Origin: a virus
Length of the DNA stretch: 38,576 nucleotides
IMG/VR virus record: IMGVR_UViG_3300045988_131186
Coordinates: 1-38,576 of that record
Direction: 5' to 3' (one strand)
A program made the translations under genes and the position numbers. This document shows positions 4,010-27,817 of the stretch, one piece after another (position 1 is the first letter of the stretch; each line of letters opens with the position of its first letter). The notes below the pieces were generated by a model. It had not been told where the DNA came from and searched no databases. It was given only the letters and a program-made list of their open reading frames with translations.

Positions 4010-4267
4010 GTGGCTCAATATCAAAAAAAGCCTGTTACAGTGGAAGCTGTGAGGTTTGATTATTCTACAGAGTGCATTTCCGCGCTGCTTGCACTCGGGC
4101 TTGACCCGGTCCGCATAAGCTATGCGGGCACAGCACCAACATTGCGTATTGGTACGCTTGAGGGAACGATGACCGCACAGCTCGGCGATTATATCATCCG
4201 CGGGGTGAACGGTGAGTTCTATCCTTGCAAGCCGGATATCTTTGAGAAAACTTATGAGGAGGTATAG
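4010..4267 (+). CDS. Small conserved phage protein of unknown function
   Basis: 85 aa with a GTG start. The motif GDYIIRGVNGEFYPCKPDIFEKTYE recurs in many phage and prophage small proteins (recalled). Confidence 0.6.
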   Translation: MAQYQKKPVTVEAVRFDYSTECISALLALGLDPVRISYAGTAPTLRIGTLEGTMTAQLGDYIIRGVNGEFYPCKPDIFEKTYEEV

Positions 4268-4270
4268 GCC

Positions 4271-4579
4271 GTGTGGGACTTCCTCCAAAACTTGTTTACG
4301 GCACTCCTGCCCATCGTAACGGCGTTTGCCGGGTGGGCGGGCGCGCGCATCCGAAACACAAACCAGAAGGACAAGGCTGTGGAGCGCGGCGTGAAAATGC
4401 TATTGCGCGCGAAAATCATCGACCTGGGCCTGCACTACCTTGAGGCCGGAGAAATTCCGCCCTACGGCATGGAAACGTTGAAAGGCTGCTACAAGGAATA
4501 CGAGGCACTGGGCGACGGCGATCATTCTGTGGGAGATATCGTCCGGCGCTGTGAAACACTTAAAATCAGAAACGGATAG
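4271..4579 (+). CDS. N-terminally membrane-anchored protein, possible lysis accessory or holin-like protein
   Basis: 102 aa. GTG start 8 nt after gaggagg. One N-terminal hydrophobic helix (LFTALLPIVTAFAGWAG). Lies between the endolysin and the holin. Confidence 0.5.
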   Translation: MWDFLQNLFTALLPIVTAFAGWAGARIRNTNQKDKAVERGVKMLLRAKIIDLGLHYLEAGEIPPYGMETLKGCYKEYEALGDGDHSVGDIVRRCETLKIRNG

Positions 4580-4593
4580 AAAGGAAAAGAACA

Positions 4594-4902
4594 ATGAACA
4601 TGATCGTACTTGTACTTATGATGGCCGTAACGGTGGAGGCACTGATCGAATACGCTAAGACCTTCGGCAAAGCAATCATCGAAAAGCAGTGGAAAACCGC
4701 CGCCACGCAGGCGGGGGCCGTTGCTCTGGGCGTGCTGCTATGCTTTGGTGTTGGAGCTGACTTCTACGCCGCGCTGGGTGTGAATTTCAACGTGGCATGG
4801 ATTGGCATTGCGCTTACGGGAGTCTTTGCCAGTCGTGGCGCGAACTATGTATCCGACCTTGTGAAGAAGTTGCAGGCGCTGGGCGCGGCAAAAACCGAAT
4901 AG
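4594..4902 (+). CDS. Holin
   Basis: 102 aa with 2-3 hydrophobic helices and a charged C-terminus (KKLQALGAAKTE). The TVEALIEYAK-type N-terminus is typical of Firmicute phage holins. It is the last gene of the late operon before a terminator. Confidence 0.7.
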   Translation: MNMIVLVLMMAVTVEALIEYAKTFGKAIIEKQWKTAATQAGAVALGVLLCFGVGADFYAALGVNFNVAWIGIALTGVFASRGANYVSDLVKKLQALGAAKTE

Positions 4903-4915
4903 TATATGACGAAAA

Positions 4916-4958
4916 CCCCCGGTTCAGGATTTTTGATTCCTGGCCGGGGGCTTTTTTA
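4916..4958 (+). terminator. Rho-independent terminator ending the late/lysis operon
   Basis: GC-rich hairpin cccccggttcagga / tcctggccggggg followed by cttttttatttt. Confidence 0.75.
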
Positions 4959-5133
4959 TTTTATAGAAAACTGCCCCGCCCATGAATAACGGACGAGGGC
5001 AGCGTGCACCGCGCGAAGTGGGGAGCGCGGCTATGAGGATACAATACCACAATAGTATGGTTTTGTCAGCTAAAATTCCGTTAAATTTATACAGTTCATC
5101 AACGATGCAAGAGGACAAGAATGCAATGAGGTA

Positions 5134-5169
5134 AAATAATAAAAGAAAGAGCTGCACATTGGCAGCTCT
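5134..5169 (-). terminator. Terminator of the leftward lysogeny operon
   Basis: Hairpin agagctgc (5148-5155) / gcagctct (5162-5169), immediately after the integrase stop. On the - strand it is followed by ttcttttattatttt. Confidence 0.6.
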
Positions 5170-5172
5170 CTT

Positions 5173-6849
5173 TTAAGCGCGTGGTATACTCCACGCAAAT
5201 ATGAGATATTGCAGGCCATCAAGCATCCTGCAAGTACTATACATATGGTGACCCGACCCGTTTTCGGGTGTTGTATGGTACTTTTCACCGCTTGCGCTTT
5301 CTGAAGGAAACAACTCCGGGTGCTGCGGCCTGGATTTCGTTGGATCAGGATCTGTCCCATCCGTAGAAATCAATGTTTTAATCTCGATGGTATCTGTGCG
5401 TATATTCACGCGGCTTACAACGGCCAGTATAAGTTTTAATCCTTCGGGTGTGTCAATATCTACCTTCGCCACATTTTCTACACAGCGGCGAATCGTAGCG
5501 TCGTCAAGCCCTACATAGCCCTTATATTGATTCAGCTCTGCCGTTTCTGCTTCGATTTTTGCCTTTTCTTCTTCCAAGCGCCTGACCTTTTCTTTCAGCT
5601 CCGCGCTGACCACGCCTTCCAAAAGCGCGTTAACACCATTTTCCAGTTGGCGGCATACACGCGTATACCGGGATGCCAACTCTGCGCGACGTGTATCGTA
5701 TTCGGTAGTGATTTGCCGCTCCTGGTCGCGTGCTACATCAACCAGCATTTCAATATTGGCTGGCTCATTCAGCATTTGCTTAATACTGGCCGCGACCGTC
5801 TGTTCCAGCCACTCCGTACGAACATTTTTCATTTTGCATGTATGTGTACGCCTTTTATTATTGCACTCATAGTATTGGTAACCGGATGCCTTGCTTCCCA
5901 TCACCACCATGCTGGCGCCACAGTCACCGCAGAATACACGGCCGGTGAGCAGATATTCGCGCTTGGCACTGTATCTCCCGCCAGCCCCCTTGCGTGTTCG
6001 GATTCGGGACTGTACCTGCTCCCACAATTCTTGTTCAATGATAGCCGGTACACCGTTCTCAACCACAATAGCGTCCTCTTTGCTTTTGGCGTGACTATTC
6101 CAGCGTCCGTCCGCCTGTGCCTTGGTGGCGCCGTAAACAAGGCGGCCGATATATTTTTCGTTTTTGAGCAGGTCAAAAATGGAGTTTTTCCCGAACGGTT
6201 GGCCCCGTTTTGTAAGATATCCTCGGCTGTTCAATTCGTCTACGATTTCTCCGTAACTGAATCCCCGTGCGAATAGTTGAAACACAAGGCGCACGGCCCC
6301 TGCTTCATGCTCATTGACCACATACTTTTTGTCCTTGTCAAGATCGTACCCTAGGGGCGGCTTACCGCCGGAGGATTTGCCCTCCCGGGCGTTATGCTTC
6401 AGCGCATCTATTGTTTTCTGGCGCGTTATCAGAACCTGCGCGTGATTGAGCATCGCTGTTGCAGCTTCATTGATGAATACTGCGGGGTCTTTAAGATCTC
6501 CTCCCACCATTGGCTGCGTCACACTGGCCACCCGTGCTCCCAGCATATCCACGTCTTTCCGGAACTGAAACCACTCGGTAAATTCGCGGAACATACGGCT
6601 TTGGTCGTATACGACCACAAGCTGCGCGCCGCCCATGCCCAAGTGCATCATGCAGGCTTCATAACCGGCACGGGTCTCTTTCATGCCGGAAACAGCTTCA
6701 TCGGAGAATATTTTTCCCACCTGATAACCATTGCGCTCACACCATTCGCGGCATTTTTCCACCTGAACGTCGATGGTCACGGGATTCTGATTGTCTGTTG
6801 AGTACCGGGCCAGAATATCGGCTACCGGGCGGGCAGCAAATTCATCCAT
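5173..6849 (-). CDS. Large serine recombinase (phage integrase type)
   Basis: 558 aa from ATG 6849 (RBS aaaggga); the ORF track extends to 6933. N-terminal resolvase-type catalytic motif ARYSTDNQ, a recombinase domain, a Cys-rich zinc-ribbon (CGDCG...CNNKRRTHTC) and a coiled-coil region. Confidence 0.9.
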   Translation of the reverse strand: MDEFAARPVADILARYSTDNQNPVTIDVQVEKCREWCERNGYQVGKIFSDEAVSGMKETRAGYEACMMHLGMGGAQLVVVYDQSRMFREFTEWFQFRKDVDMLGARVASVTQPMVGGDLKDPAVFINEAATAMLNHAQVLITRQKTIDALKHNAREGKSSGGKPPLGYDLDKDKKYVVNEHEAGAVRLVFQLFARGFSYGEIVDELNSRGYLTKRGQPFGKNSIFDLLKNEKYIGRLVYGATKAQADGRWNSHAKSKEDAIVVENGVPAIIEQELWEQVQSRIRTRKGAGGRYSAKREYLLTGRVFCGDCGASMVVMGSKASGYQYYECNNKRRTHTCKMKNVRTEWLEQTVAASIKQMLNEPANIEMLVDVARDQERQITTEYDTRRAELASRYTRVCRQLENGVNALLEGVVSAELKEKVRRLEEEKAKIEAETAELNQYKGYVGLDDATIRRCVENVAKVDIDTPEGLKLILAVVSRVNIRTDTIEIKTLISTDGTDPDPTKSRPQHPELFPSESASGEKYHTTPENGSGHHMYSTCRMLDGLQYLIFAWSIPRA

Positions 6850-6889
6850 ATCGTTTCCCTTTCTAAGGCATCCATACATAAAGAACCTT

Positions 6890-8833
6890 TTATTTCCCGC
6901 CAGAAATCTTTTTCCATATCCAAGAAAGCGCATATCGGACTACTAGCCACTCAATAGCTAATACTCCAAAGTCAAACCAAAAGCCCTTTGTTGATGGTTC
7001 TGAACCGATGTAACCATGAATCAATAGGTCGAATAGTAACGGCAATGTGCCGAATGATGCGATAAAAGCCGCCGGTCTTCCAAATAAAACCTGCAACACA
7101 GGCTTCAAAACTGTAAGGCTTGCGCGAAAGATAGATCCTATTACTCTGAACGGAAGCGGTGCACACTGACTGCGCATCTGTACCAACTTAGAACGCCCCC
7201 ACAACCGAACGCCAATGCGTTCTGCAGTTTCAACGGCGGCCGCAGTAAATTCCTGATTTGTCATCACAACAGGGGTTCGATTTCCATAATACGCAGCGCC
7301 GGAAAACGCCTCCTGTACTGCATGATTGCCCACTGGTGAAGTGTAGCGCTTGCACTGAATCGCATAGCTGTCCATGCCTTTCTGAGCAAGCACGTCAATG
7401 CCATAATCCCCGCTGGTTTGCGTCACTTTTACGTTGCGAAAACCGTTCGCCCGGAGAAGCGATGCACAAAAGTGCTCAAACTGCTCTCCCGTCATGCTAT
7501 CGCATGACTTTATTGTGGGAAGCAATGTGTAGCGCTTCTTTGGCTTGTTCTTTTCTGTTGTGTGACGATTCTCCGCGTAGCTTGGCGCATCAAAAGACGA
7601 CAATCGGGGAGGCGTCGAGTTTTCTTCTTCTCCAGGCAATGTCAACTGAGTGGCACAACGAGAGTTTTGCGATTCATCGCAATCGCCCGCTTCAACAGCC
7701 AATTGATTTTTGGGAACATCTTCATCCTGCGGTGACGCTTCGTTGTGCGATTCTTGCATTATCATCTCAATCCACTGCTGGCGAGTAATGAGCACTTGCC
7801 GGGGCTTCGAGCCTTCATATGGGCCGATAATGTGGAGTTGTTCCATTTCGTCCATGATGCGGGCTGCTCGTGCATAGCCCAATTTGAATCGCCTCTGCAG
7901 AAGGCTAGTAGACGCCTGTCCCACGTCGATGACAACCTCTACAACCGCTTTGAGCATTGGGTCTTGGCTATCATCATATTCCACTTCTTCACTCTGCACC
8001 GGCGCAGCATACCTATTAATCTCTTGAATAAAACTCTCACTATAATTTGCGGCTGATTTCCCTTTGATTTCTTCCAGCAAATTATCAATAGTGGAATCTT
8101 CTTTAAAAACTGTTTTTACCAGCGCACGCGGAAATACTCCAGCCGAGTAAAATATTGCTTCGCCTTCATTGAGGAGTTTTTCAGATACCGTACCTCCCAA
8201 AATTTTTTTGCTATCGCTCTTTTCGGGCATCCTAAAACATAACTTACTCGGGAACTGTGACAAAAAATTTTTGCCCGGTACACTTTGCGTGGTTAGCAGA
8301 AGATGTACTCCCGCCGATCTACCAGCCTGCGTAATGCGCTCTATGTAACCTTCTGCTTCATCTCTATGTGCCGTTAAAACAATATCAAAACTATCAGCTA
8401 TGACAAGAATATGAGGCATCAACTCGGCCCCAGAAACTTCGTTCACTGCCTCATTATAACTTTCAATGTTCCGTACTTTAATTTCGGCAAAAAGCTCATA
8501 CCTTTTTTCAATTTCTACAGCTAAAGCAGCAAGTACGCCAATTGCTTTCGTATAATCCTTTACGACAGGCATCAGCATATTTTCAACGCTGTCATATCCC
8601 GAGTACTCAACACCTTTGGGGTCGATTATTATAAGTTTAAGCAAATCGCCTGGACAAAGTTCAAGTAATTCCACTAAAGCGCTGCGCAGAAATGTAGACT
8701 TTCCGCTTCCAGATGCGCCGGCAATAAGCAGATGGGGAGAACGAGTAAATTCCCAATAAACCACCTGCTCAGGGCCATTGATGATTGTTCCAATGGGAAA
8801 CAGTAGGGGCGCGCGCTCCAATGTATGCTCCAT
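6890..8833 (-). CDS. Fusion protein: FtsK/SpoIIIE-type ATPase, FtsK-gamma wHTH, Mrr-type (PD-(D/E)xK) nuclease domain and C-terminal transmembrane helices
   Basis: 647 aa. RBS aaggagg. Walker A GASGSGKST (res 39-47), Walker B-like ILVIADSFD, HLLLTTQ, KLCFRM. Gamma domain DPMLKAVVEVVIDVGQASTSLLQRRFKLGYARAARIMDEMEQLHIIGPYEGSKPRQVLI (res 291-349). Mrr_cat-like SGDYGIDVLA...YAIQCKRY (res 474-497). Hydrophobic helices in res ~560-640. Confidence 0.85.
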   Translation of the reverse strand: MEHTLERAPLLFPIGTIINGPEQVVYWEFTRSPHLLIAGASGSGKSTFLRSALVELLELCPGDLLKLIIIDPKGVEYSGYDSVENMLMPVVKDYTKAIGVLAALAVEIEKRYELFAEIKVRNIESYNEAVNEVSGAELMPHILVIADSFDIVLTAHRDEAEGYIERITQAGRSAGVHLLLTTQSVPGKNFLSQFPSKLCFRMPEKSDSKKILGGTVSEKLLNEGEAIFYSAGVFPRALVKTVFKEDSTIDNLLEEIKGKSAANYSESFIQEINRYAAPVQSEEVEYDDSQDPMLKAVVEVVIDVGQASTSLLQRRFKLGYARAARIMDEMEQLHIIGPYEGSKPRQVLITRQQWIEMIMQESHNEASPQDEDVPKNQLAVEAGDCDESQNSRCATQLTLPGEEENSTPPRLSSFDAPSYAENRHTTEKNKPKKRYTLLPTIKSCDSMTGEQFEHFCASLLRANGFRNVKVTQTSGDYGIDVLAQKGMDSYAIQCKRYTSPVGNHAVQEAFSGAAYYGNRTPVVMTNQEFTAAAVETAERIGVRLWGRSKLVQMRSQCAPLPFRVIGSIFRASLTVLKPVLQVLFGRPAAFIASFGTLPLLFDLLIHGYIGSEPSTKGFWFDFGVLAIEWLVVRYALSWIWKKISGGK

Positions 8834-8854
8834 GTAGTGCGGCCTCCTTAAAAC

Positions 8855-9448
8855 TTAAACTGAAACCAAATAGGGGTTTTTGAGTTCTTCCTGTATGTAA
8901 GGCAAATAGCGGTGCACCAATTCCAGCTCCTGCTCACCCATGTGATACCAGCGCTTGCGCTGCATCTCCCCGATACGGTGCCGCGCTGCCGCGCCCGACA
9001 CCATAAACCAATCAGACACCTCATGCTGCACCAGCCATCCATTCCGGCTCCACAGCTCCATCATAATGCATTCAGGCATCAGCAGCTGCGCAGCAAACCA
9101 GTCCGCTTCATTTTCCTGCTGAACGCCACGCTGCTTATGGCCAAGGTAAACATGTCCCAACTCATGTGCAATTGTAAAACGGCGGCGGCCAACGGGCAGA
9201 GCATGGTTATAAAGAACAAGACATCCCGGCCCTACGGGCACGCTGGTACCGTCCAAAAACTGTCCTCGGCTTTTAAATTCCGAGAGAGGCATTCCCGTTT
9301 TTGAACAATATCCCTGTATTGTATCCATCAGAATCGAAGCGCCTGCGAACACCATGCCCTGTAAATCAGTAGCCAACGAATTGATGTTCTGCTGAAGTAA
9401 AAGCCATGTAGCTACGCATTGCGCATCAGCGATAGTCATCCGGGTCAA
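8855..9448 (-). CDS. ImmA/IrrE-family zinc metallopeptidase (anti-repressor protease)
   Basis: 197 aa. HEXXH motif in FTIAHELGHVYLGH. Overlaps the upstream XRE repressor gene, which is the classic ImmR/ImmA pairing. Confidence 0.85.
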   Translation of the reverse strand: MTRMTIADAQCVATWLLLQQNINSLATDLQGMVFAGASILMDTIQGYCSKTGMPLSEFKSRGQFLDGTSVPVGPGCLVLYNHALPVGRRRFTIAHELGHVYLGHKQRGVQQENEADWFAAQLLMPECIMMELWSRNGWLVQHEVSDWFMVSGAAARHRIGEMQRKRWYHMGEQELELVHRYLPYIQEELKNPYLVSV

Positions 9449-9812
9449 GCCCCCGTGCTCTCAAATATATATCAAGGGTATCCTCAAAGTTTTTCACAAG
9501 CCGATTGTAATCTTCTTCAGGCAATTGCGACGCCATGCGCGTCAAAACCACTATATCCCGTTGCCGTGCATCCTGCGCGGTGGCGGGATTATTTTTTTTG
9601 CCTTCTGACGGATCATCTGTTTCTCCCAGCAGATAAGCGGGGGTTGTGTGGAGTGCGGAAGCCCAAGTTTCAACGGCATCCAGAGGAATCGCTATCCCCT
9701 TGTTTTGACTATCTGCAATATACGAGTTCTTCTTTCCGACGATATTACACAAGTGCGTAATGGTCATTCCTTGTTTTTTTGCAAGGGCTCTTAATCTGTC
9801 GAAATTGAACAT
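9426..9812 (-). CDS. XRE/CI-like HTH repressor
   Basis: 128 aa from ATG 9812; the ORF track extends to 9836. N-terminal HTH_3-type helix-turn-helix (LRALAKKQGMTITHLCNIVGKKNSYIADSQNKG). Divergent from the early operon. Confidence 0.85.
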   Translation of the reverse strand: MFNFDRLRALAKKQGMTITHLCNIVGKKNSYIADSQNKGIAIPLDAVETWASALHTTPAYLLGETDDPSEGKKNNPATAQDARQRDIVVLTRMASQLPEEDYNRLVKNFEDTLDIYLRARGLDPDDYR

Positions 9813-9847
9813 AATTACCCACCAATCATTGTACAATGCAACAAATA

Positions 9848-9893
9848 TCTAGCTTATCCTAGAATAACTCTTGAAATTCTAGGTTTTGCTAGA
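9848..9893. promoter_or_regulatory. Two operator-like palindromes, TCTAG-N6-CTAGA (O1 9848-9863, O2 9878-9893)
   Basis: tctagcttatcctaga and tctaggttttgctaga have centres 30 bp apart. Four CTAG tetramers fall within 46 bp of the repressor/early-gene intergenic region. O2 fills the spacer of the rightward promoter. Confidence 0.6.
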
Positions 9894-9899
9894 TATACT
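9871..9899 (+). promoter_or_regulatory. Early rightward promoter (TTGAAA-17 nt-TATACT)
   Basis: Near-consensus sigma-A/sigma-70 hexamers with a 17-nt spacer, pointing towards the early genes. Confidence 0.6.
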
Positions 9900-10087
9900 A
9901 AGAATGTCCCCTCAAAAAGGGAACAAAAAACCAGCCTTACATGGAGTATGCCCCAAGAAAAGGTGTTTTGCGTATTAAATTGAATGTAGCAACTTCAAAT
10001 TACCACAAAACGCCAAAAAAAGCAAGGCATACTCCATGAAAAGGCAACAAAAAAGCCGAAAAAATCGACATTTAAGGAGGTGGAACA

Positions 10088-10285
10088 ATGCCCCTGCACA
10101 CCGTAGAGGAGGCCGCAGAATTGATGAAGGTCTCCCCCGACACTGTCCGGGAGTGGGTACGCAGCGGCCGCCTGCGGGCCAGCAAGTTGGCAGGCTCAAA
10201 AACGCTGCGAATCAGCACGGATGACATCATGGCGTTTTACGATGCAAATGAAACCCGGGCCAAAGAAGAAAAAACACATGCTTAA
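10088..10285 (+). CDS. Excisionase-family (MerR-like HTH_17) DNA-binding protein; Cro-like or recombination directionality factor candidate
   Basis: 65 aa. RBS aaggagg. The motif HTVEEAAELMKVSPDTVREWVRSGRLRASKLAG...RISTDDI is typical of the excisionase-type HTH. It is the first gene of the early operon. Confidence 0.75.
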   Translation: MPLHTVEEAAELMKVSPDTVREWVRSGRLRASKLAGSKTLRISTDDIMAFYDANETRAKEEKTHA

Positions 10286-10297
10286 AAGGAGGATATC

Positions 10298-10489
10298 ATG
10301 CGCCTGATCGTCAGCCGGGAAACCGGAGAAATATTGGACGTTCTGGAGCCTGCCTCCGCCGCAGATTATGCCGCGTTTCATCAGTTTCTCGCCGATCAGG
10401 TACGCCGTGAGATTTTGCGAATCGGCCGGGAACATTTGGATGGCATTTGCAGGAAAGCGAGGGTAGCACATGAATCATCTGATACTTAG
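10298..10489 (+). CDS. Hypothetical early protein
   Basis: 63 aa. RBS aaggagg. No motif recognised. Confidence 0.5.
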   Translation: MRLIVSRETGEILDVLEPASAADYAAFHQFLADQVRREILRIGREHLDGICRKARVAHESSDT

Positions 10490-10736
10490 AATGACTGCCG
10501 TAACCGCGGCGATTCTTTCCATTGCCGTTTTAGATGGTATTGTGAGCGGACAGACGGCCCCCTGGACAGGATTGTTCACCGTCGCGGCGCTGCTCGGCAT
10601 TGCAGCATGGAGCTACAGCAAACAGACAAAAAGAGAGGCGCCCGCCCGTGCTGCGAACACGGACAAGCGCCAGGCGGTCAAGTTGAACCCTACGACCGCC
10701 TCCATTGTAACACATCAAGGAGGTATACATCAATGA
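10470..10736 (+). CDS. Small membrane protein (two predicted TM helices)
   Basis: 88 aa. Hydrophobic segments AVTAAILSIAVLDGIV and LFTVAALLGIAAW. Overlaps both neighbouring genes. Confidence 0.55.
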   Translation: MNHLILRMTAVTAAILSIAVLDGIVSGQTAPWTGLFTVAALLGIAAWSYSKQTKREAPARAANTDKRQAVKLNPTTASIVTHQGGIHQ

Positions 10737-22805: not shown

Positions 22806-24281
22806 ATGCTGCAAATGAACCAGAAAGCCCTGGAGGCTTATAACGCCGAAAATATCCAGAACCTGGTGGATAGGATCGCGCCTATTCTGGAGTACCGCCG
22901 CGAGATGTACAAGCGGTATTCCCGCAAAAACGGACTGTATGAGATCATCGGAGACGACGGCCAAAAGAAAACGGTGCCTTTTGAATACTACATCGCCAAT
23001 ATGGTGACCGGATACCTGAGCGGGAAGGCGCCGCAGTACAACGTACGCTGCCGCAACTGCGGAGAAGGCGGAGCGCACGATGAAGCGTATATCCGTGAGT
23101 TCAAATCCGCCATTGACCATATTCGCCGCTACAACGATGACGGGGCCACGTACATGGAACTTGTGCGGGATTATGTCGTCATGAGCGGCGCCTATTTGTA
23201 TGTGTACGAGAACAGCGATAACGAAATCGTGTATACCCGTTTCGATTCAAAGCAGACAGTTGGCATATGGGATTACTCGACGCCTGTAAATCTAATCGGG
23301 CTTGTGCGCATATGGAAGGAAGAGGACAGCGGTGGAAATCCTCAGTCCGTGATCGAGCTTTTGGCGCAATCAGGTACGCGCACGTTCCGTTCTTCCTCGG
23401 ACGGTTACAAGGAGGAAACCGGAGACAATGGCTCCACTTTATGGGACGGCATCCCGGCTGTGGCGTTTGAAAACCCGGACAACATCGCCATTTTTGAGCC
23501 TGGCCTAAGCGACATCAAGGATTTTGAGCAGATCCGCAAAAATATCCGCAGCATGACACAGGAAAATGATGAGGCGAAGCTGCTGCTGAGAGGCTACAAC
23601 TATGAGAATCAAGCCACCATCCTGAATGAGCAGGGAGAAATGGTTCCCAACCCGGCCCGCCTTGTGGAGGAACGGGCCATTCTGAACGCCCGCACCATCT
23701 CGGTGGACGATGATGGAGATATCCACTGGCTGCTGAAGGACGTCAACTATTCCGGCTTGCTGGATGTACTGAAAAGCCTGCACGATGAGATCACGATGCT
23801 GACAGGTGTGCCCAATATGACGGATGAGGCGTTCGCCAATGCGGACAACGCAAGCGCGCTGGGATATAAGCTGTATGCTCTGGACCAATACACGGCCAGC
23901 ATGGACCGAATCTTCCGAAAGGGGTATCTGGCTTTGTGGGAGCTGATCTGCGGCCGTCTTGCCAAGAAAGGACAGAAATTTGATTTCCGCGACATTGACG
24001 TTGTGATGCAGCGGAATATTCCGACCGACAAGGATAAATCCATCAACCGGGCGGCTACAATGAAAACCAGCGGCCTGTTCAGCGACGAGACATGCATCAG
24101 CGAGAGCCAGGTGGAGGTGGACCCTGCGGAGGAGATCGCCAAGCGTGACGCCGAAGCAGCGGCGAACTATGAGCTTGCCGTGGAGCGGGCAAAGGAACTT
24201 GGAAACGAAGACGATACACCCGGACAGGATGATGACAAAACAGGCGAGGACGGGGATTTGAATGGCACAGCAAGGCCGTAA
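22806..24281 (+). CDS. Portal protein (SPP1 gp6-like)
   Basis: 491 aa. Assigned from its position after TerL, its size, the N-terminal pattern ...YRREMYKRYSRK...FEYYIANMVTGYLSGKAP and an acidic C-terminus. Confidence 0.8.
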   Translation: MLQMNQKALEAYNAENIQNLVDRIAPILEYRREMYKRYSRKNGLYEIIGDDGQKKTVPFEYYIANMVTGYLSGKAPQYNVRCRNCGEGGAHDEAYIREFKSAIDHIRRYNDDGATYMELVRDYVVMSGAYLYVYENSDNEIVYTRFDSKQTVGIWDYSTPVNLIGLVRIWKEEDSGGNPQSVIELLAQSGTRTFRSSSDGYKEETGDNGSTLWDGIPAVAFENPDNIAIFEPGLSDIKDFEQIRKNIRSMTQENDEAKLLLRGYNYENQATILNEQGEMVPNPARLVEERAILNARTISVDDDGDIHWLLKDVNYSGLLDVLKSLHDEITMLTGVPNMTDEAFANADNASALGYKLYALDQYTASMDRIFRKGYLALWELICGRLAKKGQKFDFRDIDVVMQRNIPTDKDKSINRAATMKTSGLFSDETCISESQVEVDPAEEIAKRDAEAAANYELAVERAKELGNEDDTPGQDDDKTGEDGDLNGTARP

Positions 24282-25890
24282 CGATAATACATATGGCTTT
24301 GACGAGCTGGCCTTCTGGCGGCCCATCGATGCGGAAAACAGGCACGTATACAGGGCGGTCCTGCGGGAAAGCCGCGCGATACAGGATGAAGCACAGGACA
24401 TTCTCAACCGTTTTGCCGGTCTGTCCATGATGGGGCTTCTGCCCAAGGCGCAGGTAGAACGGCTGCACCGGGACATCGCACACTGGAAAAAACAAGGGGA
24501 GAGCACCAGCGAGCTGCGGCTGCTGATGCAGGACGCCCAGCGCCGGACAAGGATGCGCTGCGACGAGGCAATGCTGCTGTACCTGATGCATGTTGTTTCT
24601 GACAGCTATGCCAGAATTTCAGAGACAGACCGCGACGCCCTGCTGAACGCCTCCAGAATCGCCTACAAGCGCGCTTTTGCCGAGGGGAATGAAATTACAC
24701 GGCTCGGAACCAAAAACGCTCCTGGGGCCAAATTTGTGCGGGATACGCTTTCAAACAATCCATTGCCCACGGGCCTTACGTATGAGCAGGCACTGGCTGC
24801 GGATGCGGCATACCGGGCAAGAGAGATCACCAAGCAGGCCGTTGTCGATTCATCCCAGGGAAAAGAGCTTTCCATGGACAGCGAACCGATGCAGGCTATT
24901 TTGAGGCGGCAGCGGGCATGGCAGCTTCGTGAGGTGAAAGAAGCGCCGGAGGAACGCGAGGTACAGAATCCCCCGGAGGAGCGCGAGACACGGGAAGCGC
25001 CAGAGAACCGCGAGGAGCGGGAAGCACCGGGAAGCAGATTCACGGGTTATTACGATATGGTGATGGGCTTCATCGTGGGGCACACGGTGGTTCAGGCATT
25101 CATAGATGCGGGCGTGAAAGCGTACCGGTTCATAGCGACCATCGACGACCGCACAACGAGCGAATGCCGGGCGCTGCACGGCAAGGTGTTCCGGATGGAA
25201 GAGCTGAAGCTGGGCATCAACGCCCCGCCCGTGTATCCTCCGCCGCACCCCTGCCGCAGCGTGATTCAGGCAGTGGAAGTTGCAGATACCGGGCAGCATG
25301 ATATAATAGGAATAGGACGAGGGACAGGGATTTCCTCTGATGGTGGCGCACTCGTTGAGAATGCAGTGAACGTTGGGCACATAAATTTCAATGATAGTAC
25401 TCAGGTGGAAGAACAATTCCGGGATTTCATAGACAAAAACAGGGATTCAGACCATGAAAGTATCCGCATTATCACAAAGTCAGGCGATGTGTACGATATT
25501 TTGGGTGGTCAGGTACGCATAAATCTTGAGGGAATGGATGATTTTCTGGACGGCGCAAAGACTATTCACAACCATCCGACAGGGTATTCAGAGTATTCAT
25601 TCAGCTCGGACAGGCAGGACGATGATATCCCCAGTTTTTTCCGTGAAAACGGTTCTATGATGGAGGCTTTTGATGAAAAATATAGATATCGTTTTAATCG
25701 ACCCGCAAATGTGACGCTGGAACAATGGAACGAAGCATATGCGGCCTCCGATAAGATTGCCTTTGAAATGCTTGATGCTGAAGGCTACAGCCTTGACGAT
25801 GACCTGGTTACTTTGCTTCAGCATTACAAGATATTGGGTACGTGCAAAAGTTTGGGAATTGATGGGAGTTATATGAGATGGGAATTTTAA
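24262..25890 (+). CDS. MuF/SPP1 gp7-like minor head protein with a C-terminal extension domain (HNHPTG motif)
   Basis: 542 aa. MuF core signature IATIDDRTTSECRALHGKVF...PPPHPCRSV (res ~290-334). Residues ~345-542 form an extra, AT-richer domain containing E399...H436-N-H-P-T-G...S-S-D450. Confidence 0.85.
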   Translation: MAQQGRNDNTYGFDELAFWRPIDAENRHVYRAVLRESRAIQDEAQDILNRFAGLSMMGLLPKAQVERLHRDIAHWKKQGESTSELRLLMQDAQRRTRMRCDEAMLLYLMHVVSDSYARISETDRDALLNASRIAYKRAFAEGNEITRLGTKNAPGAKFVRDTLSNNPLPTGLTYEQALAADAAYRAREITKQAVVDSSQGKELSMDSEPMQAILRRQRAWQLREVKEAPEEREVQNPPEERETREAPENREEREAPGSRFTGYYDMVMGFIVGHTVVQAFIDAGVKAYRFIATIDDRTTSECRALHGKVFRMEELKLGINAPPVYPPPHPCRSVIQAVEVADTGQHDIIGIGRGTGISSDGGALVENAVNVGHINFNDSTQVEEQFRDFIDKNRDSDHESIRIITKSGDVYDILGGQVRINLEGMDDFLDGAKTIHNHPTGYSEYSFSSDRQDDDIPSFFRENGSMMEAFDEKYRYRFNRPANVTLEQWNEAYAASDKIAFEMLDAEGYSLDDDLVTLLQHYKILGTCKSLGIDGSYMRWEF

Positions 25891-26075
25891 ACGAAGAAGC
25901 AAAAAAAGAACTCACCAAACTGGAACAGGAGTACAAGAGGCAACTTAATGAGCTTATGAAAGGCACTCCATCCGCTCCTTTTTCACATGAAAAGTACAAA
26001 GAACGCGGAATCCTATACAGGGAATATTGCCAAAAAGTCTCTCAGGCAATAAAGCGATATAGCAGCAAGGACTGA
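25878..26075 (+). CDS. Small hypothetical protein overlapping the MuF stop (candidate immunity/partner protein)
   Basis: 65 aa, helical and charged (EEAKKELTKLEQEYKRQLNELMK). 13-nt overlap with the MuF gene. Same AT-rich composition as the MuF C-terminal extension. Followed by terminators. Confidence 0.5.
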   Translation: MGILNEEAKKELTKLEQEYKRQLNELMKGTPSAPFSHEKYKERGILYREYCQKVSQAIKRYSSKD

Positions 26076-26104
26076 ACCACCACCCATGAGGCGGTGGTTT
26101 TTTC
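26075..26104 (+). terminator. Rho-independent terminator
   Basis: aaccacc...ggtggtt hairpin followed by a T7 run. Confidence 0.7.
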
Positions 26105-26129
26105 ATGCCCAAAATTCAATCAATAGCAC

Positions 26130-26160
26130 AAGGCCCACGCTTCGGCGGCGGGCCTTTTGT
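26130..26160 (+). terminator. Second tandem terminator-like hairpin (UUCG loop)
   Basis: aaggccc-a-cgc-ttcg-gcg-gc-gggcctt followed by ttgt. Confidence 0.5.
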
Positions 26161-26239: not shown

Positions 26240-26863
26240 ATGGACGAAAACAATATCACACAGGAACAGGCCACTATTACGGTTCAGAATGGGCAGGCCC
26301 AGGAACCTGCGGCGGGCGCCGGCGCTGCACAGCAGCCCGCTGCCTCTGCTGCCGCTCCGGAGAAAAAGCCGGAGCGCACGTTCACCCGGGAGGACGTGAA
26401 TAAAATGATCGCCGCAGAGGTCGGCAAGGCCCTCCAGAAGCAGCAGGAGGCCGACAGGCTGGCGAACATGACCGAGGCCGAGCGCGTACAGCACGAGCAT
26501 GATGAGGCCATCCGGCGGGCCGATGAAGCGGAGCAGGCGCTGAATGCCTACAAGCTGCAGGCCGAAGCATCCAAGCTGGCCAACGCCGCCGGGCTGCCCC
26601 TGGAATTTCTGGACACCATCGACTTCCGCACCGCCAAGGCCGAAACGGTGAAGGGGACTGTTGAAAATCTGGCGTCCGTGTTCAAAAAGGCGGTCGAGGC
26701 CGCTGTAAATGAGCGCCTGAAGCAGCCTGCGCCAAAGACCGTGGCCGCGCAGGTGCAGACCGAGCGCCAGCGGCTTGAAAAGCAGGCCGCTGACCTGAAC
26801 GTGCCGCTGGCCCAGCGGGTGGCGGCGAAGAACAAACTTTTCAGCATTCAGAAGGAGGACTAA
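26240..26863 (+). CDS. Capsid scaffolding protein (DUF4355-like)
   Basis: 207 aa, helical and Ala/Glu/Gln-rich. FTREDVNKMIAAEVGKALQK is typical of the family. Lies directly upstream of the major capsid gene. Confidence 0.8.
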   Translation: MDENNITQEQATITVQNGQAQEPAAGAGAAQQPAASAAAPEKKPERTFTREDVNKMIAAEVGKALQKQQEADRLANMTEAERVQHEHDEAIRRADEAEQALNAYKLQAEASKLANAAGLPLEFLDTIDFRTAKAETVKGTVENLASVFKKAVEAAVNERLKQPAPKTVAAQVQTERQRLEKQAADLNVPLAQRVAAKNKLFSIQKED

Positions 26864-26869
26864 AAGACT

Positions 26870-27817
26870 ATGGCAAACATTACGACCACGGGCTCCGTTT
26901 GGAACCTGCCCAACTATGCGGGTGAGCTGTTCACTGCCGACGCAGTGAATACCCCTATCCTGTCGGCCATTGGCGGCCTGACCGAAGGCGGCATGCAGAC
27001 GGAGGACTTCGAGTTCCCGACTGACAGCCAGTACAATTTCCCCGAAGCGGCACAGCCTGCGATCACGGAGACTGCATCGCTGACTGCGCCTGCGCCGGTT
27101 GGAATCGTACGCAGCCAGAACACCAACGTGACGCAGATTTTCCACGAATCTGTGGATATCAGCTACGTGAAGATGTCAAACGCCGGACGCATGAGCGGCC
27201 TGAACACCGCCGGGCAGGAGAATAACGTCCCCAATGAGAAAGATTTCCAGATTGCCAAGGCGCTGCAGAAGATTGCCCGCGATGTGGAGTACACCATCAT
27301 CAACGGCGTATACGCCAAGGCTACCGCTGCGAATGTGGCCAACAAAACGCGCGGCCTTCTGGCGCTGTGCGCTGGCGACGGCGGCACAAACGTCGCGGCT
27401 GGGAGCAAAGCTCTTACCAAGGCGCTGATGCAGCAGCTTTTCAAGAAAATGTATGATGCGGGAGCCATCTTCAGCAACATGGTTTTGTGGACCGGCAGCA
27501 CGCAGAAACAGCTCATCACGGATATCTATTCCTACGCGCCGACGGACCGCAACATCGGAGGCACCAATATCAAGCAGATCGAGACGGACTTCGGCAATAT
27601 CGGCATTGCCCTGAACCGTTTCATGCCGCAGACGGCGGTGCTCGCCGTAGAAATGAGCGCCGTGCGCCCGGTGTTCCAGCCTGTGCCGGGTAAAGGCAAT
27701 TTCTTCTATGAGGAGCTTGCCAAGACGGGCGCCAGCGAGAAAGGCCAGATCTTCGGCCAGTTCGGCCTGGACCACGGCCCTGCGTTCCTGCACGGCTCCA
27801 TCACCGGCTTGACCTGA
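26870..27817 (+). CDS. Major capsid protein (SU10/DUF5309-like)
   Basis: 315 aa. RBS aaggagg. The N-terminal pattern WNLPNYAGELFTADAVNTPILSAIGG is characteristic of this capsid family (recalled). Confidence 0.85.
   Translation: MANITTTGSVWNLPNYAGELFTADAVNTPILSAIGGLTEGGMQTEDFEFPTDSQYNFPEAAQPAITETASLTAPAPVGIVRSQNTNVTQIFHESVDISYVKMSNAGRMSGLNTAGQENNVPNEKDFQIAKALQKIARDVEYTIINGVYAKATAANVANKTRGLLALCAGDGGTNVAAGSKALTKALMQQLFKKMYDAGAIFSNMVLWTGSTQKQLITDIYSYAPTDRNIGGTNIKQIETDFGNIGIALNRFMPQTAVLAVEMSAVRPVFQPVPGKGNFFYEELAKTGASEKGQIFGQFGLDHGPAFLHGSITGLT

Follow-up and report, generated by a model that had tools for sequence, protein, structure and literature searches.

Why should a phage head protein end in an AT-rich extension with the look of an enzyme, and why should a very small gene overlap its last codons? 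This is the question raised by positions 25281-26075 of the window, by which we mean the whole 38,576-nucleotide (nt) stretch of viral DNA that was analysed (IMG/VR record IMGVR_UViG_3300045988_131186). The head protein is of the MuF/gp7 type, and our answer, to which we would give a probability of about 60%, is that this segment is an exchangeable cassette on the MuF gene, encoding a capsid-delivered RadC/JAB-like hydrolase effector (the cargo) together with a cognate partner that would neutralise it. The features of carrier and cassette, with protein lengths in amino acids (aa), are these:

24262-25890, + strand: MuF fusion gene, 542 aa, from the list of open reading frames (ORFs)
24262..25281, + strand: MuF carrier part, residues 1-340, matched by TIGR01641 and PF04233, conserved among sister phages and ending in PHPCRSVIQAVEV
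25282..25362, + strand: Gly-rich linker (ADTGQHDIIGIGRGTGISSDGGALVEN), start of the swapped cassette, predicted to be disordered (model m766c316671ef: domain residues 1-19, predicted local distance difference test score (pLDDT) <50)
25363..25887, + strand: putative divergent RadC/JAB-like domain, MuF residues 368-542, with an alpha/beta core, then a C-terminal helical hairpin and a final strand
25456..25458, + strand: codon of E399, a Glu in 138/140 family members that aligns with the conserved RadC Glu
25567..25626, + strand: predicted metal-binding/catalytic loop, H436-N-H438-P-T-G-Y-S-E-Y-S446-F-S448-S-D450-R-Q-D-D-D455
25878-26075, + strand: 65-aa partner ORF, overlapping the MuF stop by 13 nt, with a GGGAG Shine-Dalgarno sequence 9 nt upstream of its ATG
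26077-26100, + strand: first terminator-like hairpin with a U run, -15.8 kcal/mol, z -3.4, at the right cassette junction and common to the sister phages
26131-26158, + strand: second terminator-like hairpin, GGCCC...GGGCC then UUUUGUU, -23.5 kcal/mol, z -5.5

Is the end of the MuF protein a separate module?

The answer is yes. The carrier is recognised by TIGR01641 (SPP1 gp7) over residues 267-337 (53.2 bits, E 3e-14; cut-off 39.65) and by Pfam Phage_Mu_F (PF04233) over residues 282-325 (30.6 bits; cut-off 29.6), and its last conserved residue is V340 (nt 25281), at the end of PHPCRSVIQAVEV, which spans residues 328-340. A first-pass annotation of the window had put the end of the MuF core near PPPHPCRSV, at about residue 335. 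It had also described an abrupt drop to AT-rich composition at about 25290 that runs on through the small ORF, and the measurements bear this out: in steps of 200 nt the GC content is 0.60-0.63 up to 25299 and then 0.39-0.45 across 25300-26099, or, taken by part, 0.59 N-terminally, 0.43 C-terminally and 0.40 in the small ORF. The 13-nt overlap of that ORF with the MuF stop is found in the ORF list, and the two terminators said to follow it are the hairpins at 26077-26100 and 26131-26158.

The evidence that carries the case comes from sister phages, which we surveyed by a protein search with the MuF N-terminal 340 residues and by DNA alignment of the loci L107-L110. The N-terminal part is 85-97% identical in the MuF proteins P0194-P0200, and the DNA of the four loci agrees with that of the window at 92-96% as far as nt 25280; agreement resumes at 26067-26120 (in L107, L108 and L109, at 26067-26075), and the middle is unalignable. 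The left junction falls directly after the PHPCRSVIQAVEV codons (residue 340) and the right one at the small-ORF stop and first terminator; the composition changes within about 10 nt of the end (25280) and the return (about 26070) of nucleotide homology, so the breakpoint at about 25280 is more than a composition effect, since homology to the sister phages stops there too. On MuF N-termini that are 85-87% identical, five types of cassette are found:

Cassette type 1, the window type: P0194, P0004, P0214
Cassette type 2, a distant form (37% identity) of the same domain family: P0198 and the Anaeromassilibacillus prophage L107
Cassette type 3, a domain with ...VHNHNEAQPLSETD: P0195, P0215
Cassette type 4, a domain with ...LHNHPSNDILSPED: P0199, P0200
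Cassette type 5, an unrelated domain: P0196, P0197

At least four other C-termini, mutually unrelated or very distant, have been placed on sister MuF N-termini together with different small ORFs; the alternative cassettes are all AT-rich (GC 0.43-0.50 versus 0.58-0.60 for the backbone) and each type brings its own small ORF or ORFs, of 62 + 76 aa, 63 aa, 79 aa and 66 aa. Two of these other types also carry HNH...S..D motifs, and JAB-like cargos therefore dominate this MuF lineage. A GNAT-like identity was suspected from sequence for the P0196/P0197 cassette and set aside, no Pfam or PDB match backing it. These observations support the view that the MuF C-terminus is a horizontally swapped module with precisely mapped junctions, much as the first-pass annotation had proposed, and such exchange of a cargo with its own small ORF on near-identical backbones is the defining behaviour of a polymorphic toxin locus.

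Might the extension instead be a conserved structural or morphogenetic part of the MuF protein, for instance a head-maturation or self-processing peptidase, with the small ORF as an ordinary head-assembly gene? The domain is present in 361 cluster representatives and always on head proteins, one of its carriers is a prohead protease, and a conserved motif in the Gly-rich linker could be a processing site. Yet backbones that are 92-96% identical swap in unrelated domains, more distant MuF relatives (31-44% identity, about 300 aa) have no C-terminal extension at all, the composition of the segment is foreign to the backbone, and in a cluster of 15 sequences MuF and domain are kept apart as two ORFs. 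Because sister phages replace the extension and distant MuF proteins lack it, it is dispensable for morphogenesis; on the same two grounds the structural alternative, which had been named beforehand as the one that would overturn the toxin-like reading, is for practical purposes excluded, and we consider it highly improbable.

The linker motif, G-[RL]-G-[AS]-G, recurs family-wide in an otherwise variable linker (in the window at 25303-25329, residues 348-356, HDIIGIGRG), and in proteins with other cassette types (P0195, P0196, P0198) RG.G-like strings stand immediately past the junction. The motif may mark a site of proteolytic release, or it may be what recombination left at the junction. As for the split forms, in L002 (234-1768; the P0001 cluster of 15 sequences, a 95-96% identical relative) linker deletions of 6 nt and 7 nt leave, in place of the fusion, a 358-aa MuF and an independent ORF of 161 aa for the domain, and a MuF2 gene that is fused in L009 (610 aa) shows a like split in L008/L010 (387 + 212 aa). 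These forms may represent decay, assembly error or a functional unfused state. Several gene calls are chimeric: P0003 joins an ArsR-type helix-turn-helix to the last 30 domain residues, P0203 joins the MuF N-terminus to an IMS_C (Y-family polymerase) domain, and P0012/P0214 combine a response-regulator receiver domain, a MuF fragment and the cargo domain. These could be assembly chimeras or recombination scars.

Is the cargo a RadC/JAB-like domain?

Here the evidence is supportive and comes mainly from profile comparison. Set against a RadC reference alignment made of E. coli YicR and 15 phage RadC proteins, the cargo family scores 27.5-30.4 in HHalign (P 3e-4 to 1.3e-3) over 84-88 columns, compared with 8.7-17.8 for 30 column-shuffled control alignments and 17.7 for the reversed alignment, and the paired columns put E399 on the RadC Glu, HNHP on HNHPSG and D455 on the RadC Asp. 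A bridge between the two families is provided by P0211, a MuF protein with a canonical SHNHPSGGPPSPND in its C-terminus (an HNHPSG..PS..D motif) and near-canonical spacing from HxH to Asp, which aligns with the cargo family at an HHalign probability of 96.6% (E 5e-10, 136 columns) and with the RadC alignment at 90.9% (E 1e-6). Because the family beats its shuffled controls and P0211 links it to RadC, the JAB/RadC likeness first noticed from the motif has gained in substance, and the cargo is best described as a probable divergent RadC/JAB-like domain that has a longer loop from HxH to Asp and additions peculiar to the family.

The residues themselves point the same way. Counted across 140 family members, H436 is conserved in 139, H438 in 140, S446 (as Ser or Thr) in 137, S448 in 131 and D455 in all 140, and F447, D471, Y474, Y476, H521, Y537 and R539 are conserved in the family as well. 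All four elements of the E ... H-x-H ... S ... D signature are conserved in the cargo family. The JAMM-like motif of the first-pass annotation needs one correction, however: E399 and H436-N-H-P-T-G...S-S-D450 are present as described, but it is the invariant D455, not D450 (D or E in 107/140 members), that aligns with the JAMM/RadC Asp. The RQDD between D450 and D455 is a four-residue insertion in the window and a few close relatives, these columns being gaps in 111-134 of the 140.

In the MPN/JAB fold the HxH motif lies at the end of a strand and the Asp caps the helix that follows. A first AlphaFold 2 model of the cargo, built from 3 sequences, reached a pLDDT of 52.6 and was discarded; the model from a 35-sequence alignment reached 89.3, with a predicted template-modelling score (pTM) of 0.83. 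It runs in the order strand, helix, two strands (with E399 just before the first), short helix and a strand ending in H436-x-H438, then a loop, a helix starting at D455, two strands, a helical hairpin and a last strand, preceded by 19 disordered residues of Gly-rich linker. This order is compatible with the MPN/JAB layout. Among viral models (BFVD), Foldseek found three 'RadC' proteins beyond the family itself (E 3.6e-3 to 0.27, TM-score (TM) 0.33-0.34), together with a 'deubiquitination hydrolase' and several giant-virus proteins, so that the structure searches lend the predicted link to RadC/JAB weak support.

A number of results weigh against this assignment, and we list them together. The canonical spacing H-x-H-x(7)-S-x(2)-D is absent: the Ser lies at +10, as in JAMM, and the invariant Asp, at +13 in JAMM counting from the first His, is shifted to +15 in most members and to +19 in the window. 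The direct HHalign probability against RadC is 18-38%, and single-sequence comparisons with YicR and with the Prok-JAB protein of L006 give motif-level matches alone, at 2-6%. Searched against the PDB, the confident model finds nothing significant with Foldseek (best E 0.23), the JAMM protein BRCC36 appearing at rank 10 (E 0.53, TM 0.22). The Pfam models JAB, Prok-JAB, RadC and DUF4329 (PF01398, PF14464, PF04002, PF14220) do not match the window protein at E<=1, and DUF4329 gives one marginal match (E 0.016) among 35 members. NCBIfam, PHROG and PADLOC models leave the domain undetected; more broadly, residues 345-542 have no match in Pfam, PHROGs, NCBIfam, PADLOC or PDB sequences, and the family profile run against PDB sequences returns only the designer propeller 'Scone-R', by a short repeat match.

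Do the HNH letters, then, belong to some fold unrelated to JAB, that of a His-Me/HNH nuclease, say, or of a different HxH metalloenzyme, with the JAB/RadC likeness a coincidence of a short motif? Much of the direct HHalign score does come from the HNHP stretch, and Foldseek recovered no solved JAB structure. A short motif would nevertheless be a poor explanation for alignments of 84-136 columns that take in the Glu strand before the motif and the Asp helix after it; the secondary-structure order of the model fits the MPN/JAB layout, no library yields an HNH or His-Me family match, and what structural neighbours there are, weak as they may be, are RadC proteins and a deubiquitinase. We judge a chance resemblance improbable.

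Is the small gene a genuine partner?

The small ORF had been cast as the partner of the extension, and a wider survey favours this. Among 90 related loci examined for an ORF downstream of the domain gene, every one that does not end at a contig edge has an ORF of about 59-86 aa starting within the last 4-38 nt of the domain gene, in about 15 distinct versions overall. The 65-aa protein is identical in L002 and L011, and the window differs from L002 by two nucleotides, both synonymous; between pairs of partner ORFs pN/pS is 0.16-0.34, with synonymous divergence near saturation. The partner ORF is coding and under purifying selection. A profile built from the small ORFs of 14 other loci, with the window's left out, ranks the window ORF first among 557 six-frame ORFs (E 0.0033), and the ORFs resemble one another in size, in charged composition and in a pattern ...EY.R...G...LY.EY..., from which the proteins are probably helical hairpins, two helices around a loop containing Gly or Pro. 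No known immunity or antitoxin family in Pfam, PHROGs, NCBIfam or PADLOC matches the 65-aa ORF, and BLASTP of the window ORF against that of L001 finds no match.

There is also an example in a cultured phage. In Fusobacterium phage FNU_1P an 85-aa ORF at L111 3468-3725 (MZ503612.1 4735-4992), which is not annotated, has a 4-nt overlap with the stop of the domain-carrying 'minor capsid protein'. This ORF is the phage's version of the partner gene and offers a possible experimental system.

Toxin or aid to infection?

The cargo family is a large one. An exhaustive hidden Markov model (HMM) search yields 361 cluster representatives (at 50% identity) with E<=1e-3, 75 of them with E<=1e-10, after a word-indexed search had given 3 relatives and a profile-aided one 44. 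The domain is C-terminal in every case, and all its carriers are head-interior phage proteins: among 84 longer members we count 42 Phage_Mu_F, 27 Phage_min_cap2, 3 VG15, 1 portal and 1 XkdF-type prohead protease. In GenBank phages a protein search finds 2 records with the domain, one being the cultured phage FNU_1P, and a DNA search finds no match. Orphan cassettes, truncated or without a carrier, lie downstream of a full MuF with other cargo in L003 and L008-L010, where they adjoin ADP-ribosyltransferase and CdiA_C modules and resemble the orphan modules of polymorphic toxin loci. In these multi-cassette loci of other gut phages (L003 1541-5318; L008/L009 1637-4740) the order is a full MuF2 with ADP-ribosyltransferase-like or other cargo and its own small ORF, an orphan CdiA_C module, an orphan JAB-like cassette with partner and a conserved 47-48-aa Cys-rich (KTR-like) gene before the scaffold gene.

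Every feature of a MuF polymorphic toxin that can be tested from sequence is found here: a MuF domain, a position after the portal gene, a variable C-terminus and a small gene that changes with it. The architecture is of the MuF polymorphic toxin type (PMC3482391, PMC5576092). Three points tell against a toxin with its neutralising partner. No Rhs, LXG or contact-dependent inhibition (CDI) carrier occurs among the 84 longer members, and this restriction to head proteins is unusual for a general interbacterial toxin domain and leans towards an effector specific to infection; the similarity of the small ORFs is weak (E 0.0033), leaving their homology not firmly established; and no promoter was detected that would express the partner gene in a lysogen.

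These points bring in a second possibility, in which the cargo is a counter-defence or host-takeover effector, a JAB-type isopeptidase or RadC-like nucleic-acid-processing enzyme that disarms host immunity at entry, and the partner is an assembly chaperone or temporary inhibitor rather than an immunity protein shielding kin cells. We rate it as possible though on the unlikely side, and give it that much weight because the carriers are head proteins only, with none on secretion-system toxins, and because the partner gene, translationally coupled in a late operon and with no promoter of its own detected, would be made only alongside the cargo. RadC domains are, moreover, frequent in the early-entry 'polyvalent' proteins of phages and plasmids (PMC5512222), and Jamet et al. 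propose that MuF cargos of low toxicity, such as proteases, modulate infection (PMC5576092). What speaks for the toxin instead is the strict pairing of each cassette type with its own small gene, a hallmark of toxin and immunity, and the company that the orphan cassettes keep, ADP-ribosyltransferase and CdiA_C modules being typical of toxin loci. A bolder version, which we regard as doubtful, makes the cargo a capsid-delivered JAB isopeptidase that on entry strips the conjugates of bacterial ubiquitin-like (Ubl) conjugation defences (type II CBASS Cap2/Cap3-type, Bil-type) or cleaves a host immune protein. The small protein would then be an inhibitor in the producing cell or a packaging chaperone, and the head-only carriers would reflect an infection-specific role as opposed to killing between bacteria; if true, this would be the first virion-packaged deconjugase counter-defence.

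How might the cassette work?

Returning to the toxin-like cassette that we favour, we can sketch a mechanism. SPP1 gp7 is the basis for thinking that MuF proteins are packaged in the virion and released (as cited in PMC5576092), an idea with which the restriction of the cargo to head-protein carriers agrees, and effector domains fused to MuF or portal proteins enter the virion and are injected (PMC5512222). On the model of SPP1 gp7 and of such published fusions, the MuF N-domain (1-340) would carry the cargo into the capsid beside the portal, and the fusion would be ejected with the DNA. E399, H436, H438 and D455, with S446/S448, may form a metal site that activates water, and the cargo (about 368-542) may hydrolyse a host macromolecule early in infection. 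For the predicted enzyme we infer either peptidase or nuclease chemistry, the substrate being a peptide/isopeptide bond or nucleic acid. The 65-aa gene is translationally coupled to the cargo through the stop overlap, and its product would most likely bind and silence the enzyme in the producing cell as an immunity-like inhibitor. The cassettes pass from phage to phage by recombination, with the left crossover in conserved coding DNA (...PHPCRSVIQAVEV) and the right one in the terminator region. The sequence is compatible with either of two outcomes, death of bacteria that lack immunity or an advantage to the infecting phage.

How does it compare with known systems?

MuF polymorphic toxins with downstream immunity genes have been described (PMC3482391, PMC5576092), and the window shares several of their traits (Zhang et al. 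2012, PMC3482391; Jamet et al. 2017, PMC5576092): the MuF N-domain is encoded right after the portal gene, the C-terminal domain is exchanged among close relatives with a small gene directly downstream, the phage is temperate, and orphan cassettes occur in some loci. It differs in that its cargo is not a catalogued toxin domain and has no Pfam match, that its cargo is found as well on carriers of the minor capsid protein 2, portal, VG15 and prohead-protease kinds, and that no cargo homologue was seen on non-phage toxin carriers. In those supplementary tables of Jamet et al. (PMC5576092) that were searched, the terms 'JAB' and 'RadC' do not appear.

The RadC clade of JAB domains, represented by E. 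coli YicR and by the RadC domains of phage and plasmid polyvalent proteins (PMC5512222), shares with the cargo the HNHP core, the upstream Glu on the preceding strand, the Ser/Asp element after the HxH loop, the HHalign link through P0211 and an occurrence in proteins that mobile elements deliver early (PMC5512222). Its sequence identity to that clade is very low, and the Pfam RadC model misses it; the cargo also differs in having a longer HxH-to-Asp loop (a YSFS insertion), an extra N-terminal strand, a C-terminal helical hairpin and strand, the further invariant residues D471, Y476, H521, Y537 and R539, and a dedicated small partner gene.

JAB clades do serve as toxin domains, with the motif E, H[ST]H, S, D, and Tox-JAB-2 has been reported in Caudovirales and giant viruses (PMC3482391). 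The cargo is like Tox-JAB-1/2 in placing a JAB-superfamily domain with that signature as a C-terminal toxin module (PMC3482391), and like Tox-JAB-2 in that its BFVD structural neighbours include giant-virus proteins. It is unlike them in its marginal DUF4329 match (1/35 members, E 0.016), in its carriers, which are phage head proteins rather than Rhs proteins or the type VI and type VII secretion systems, and in its partner, a probably helical-hairpin protein of 59-85 aa rather than the immunity proteins Imm65 or Imm-NTF2-2. Lastly, capsid-packaged effectors such as T4 Alt, the EFV ADP-ribosyltransferase MuF toxin and the MuF/portal-PBECR fusions (PMC5512222, PMC5576092) likewise place an enzyme on or with head-interior proteins for delivery with the DNA, but they have another enzymatic domain and no strictly coupled small partner gene has been reported for them. 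A search of the literature for JAB deconjugases of phages, or for RadC effectors in capsids, turned up nothing directly relevant. All in all, the MuF toxin architecture is a known one, and the cargo family, which has its own partner protein family, is uncatalogued.

What surrounds the cassette?

The + strand of the window encodes a packaging and head module of small and large terminase, SPP1-type portal, MuF/gp7-type gene, small ORF, scaffold and major capsid gene. The names of the backbone gene families were transferred from loci that are 93-96% identical.

22806..24281, + strand: portal gene, SPP1-type, 491 aa, upstream of the MuF gene and overlapping its start at 24262
26240-26863, + strand: scaffold gene, DUF4355, 207 aa, Pfam family taken from the homologous L108/L109 genes (93-96% nucleotide identity)
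26870-27817, + strand: major capsid gene, SU10_MCP, 315 aa, Pfam family taken from the homologous L108/L109 genes (93-96% nucleotide identity)

For the portal, the identity comes through L108 (a 95.8% identical locus), where PF05133 SPP1_portal matches the same 491-aa product; the scaffold and major capsid genes form the conserved backbone to the right of the cassette. The phage is temperate, because the window encodes a serine recombinase, a tyrosine integrase and an ImmA/IrrE peptidase. A metagenome-assembled genome (MAG) of Anaeromassilibacillus sp. contains a related locus, its full-length MuF fusion protein being 67% identical and its flanking DNA 92-96% identical, which makes a Clostridia species of the gut the probable host.

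Two small variations flank the cassette. At 24952-25008, within an acidic repetitive MuF stretch (REVKEAPEEREVQNPPEERETREAPENREEREAP), the window is about 55 nt longer than all the sister phages, and because the two flanking alignment blocks of the sister loci overlap there by 26 nt, the extra DNA looks like an expansion of a PEERE-type repeat. Between the two terminators, sister phages have a Cys-rich 67-aa gene (MPKMCPYNRAREVQ...CTGEECGAWRDGACRY...; L002 2014-2217, L108 5038-5241, L110 4829-5032, L107 about 4076-4279), which the window lacks at 26111-26120; this presence and absence makes the spot a second small insertion/deletion hot spot beside the cassette.

Further away, the window encodes two site-specific recombinases, one a tyrosine integrase and the other a large serine recombinase (63-1181 and 5173-6933), and its GC content is lower, 0.44-0.50, over about 4500-10500; its left part could be the end of a prophage, or else a second element. 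On the - strand, 6890-8833 encodes a 647-aa fusion of an FtsK/HerA-type ATPase, an FtsK gamma domain and an Mrr-type restriction endonuclease domain, adjoining the serine recombinase (5173-6933) and the ImmA/IrrE peptidase gene (8855-9448), and this fusion is a candidate prophage-encoded defence or exclusion gene.

Why does it matter?

Near-identical backbones with five alternative cassettes show modular exchange of cargo in human-gut Clostridia phages, at junctions that could be mapped precisely. The analysis also defines a sizeable family, absent from Pfam, PHROGs, NCBIfam, PADLOC and PDB, which can now be placed, with predicted catalytic residues, in the RadC/JAB superfamily, and whose partner gene is systematically unannotated, as in Fusobacterium phage FNU_1P. 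For RadC-type JAB domains, the biochemical activity is not known to have been settled. A RadC-type domain that comes with a dedicated partner in a toxin-like cassette offers a simple genetic handle, in the form of an expression phenotype and its rescue by the partner, and this handle could help settle what RadC-clade JAB domains do.

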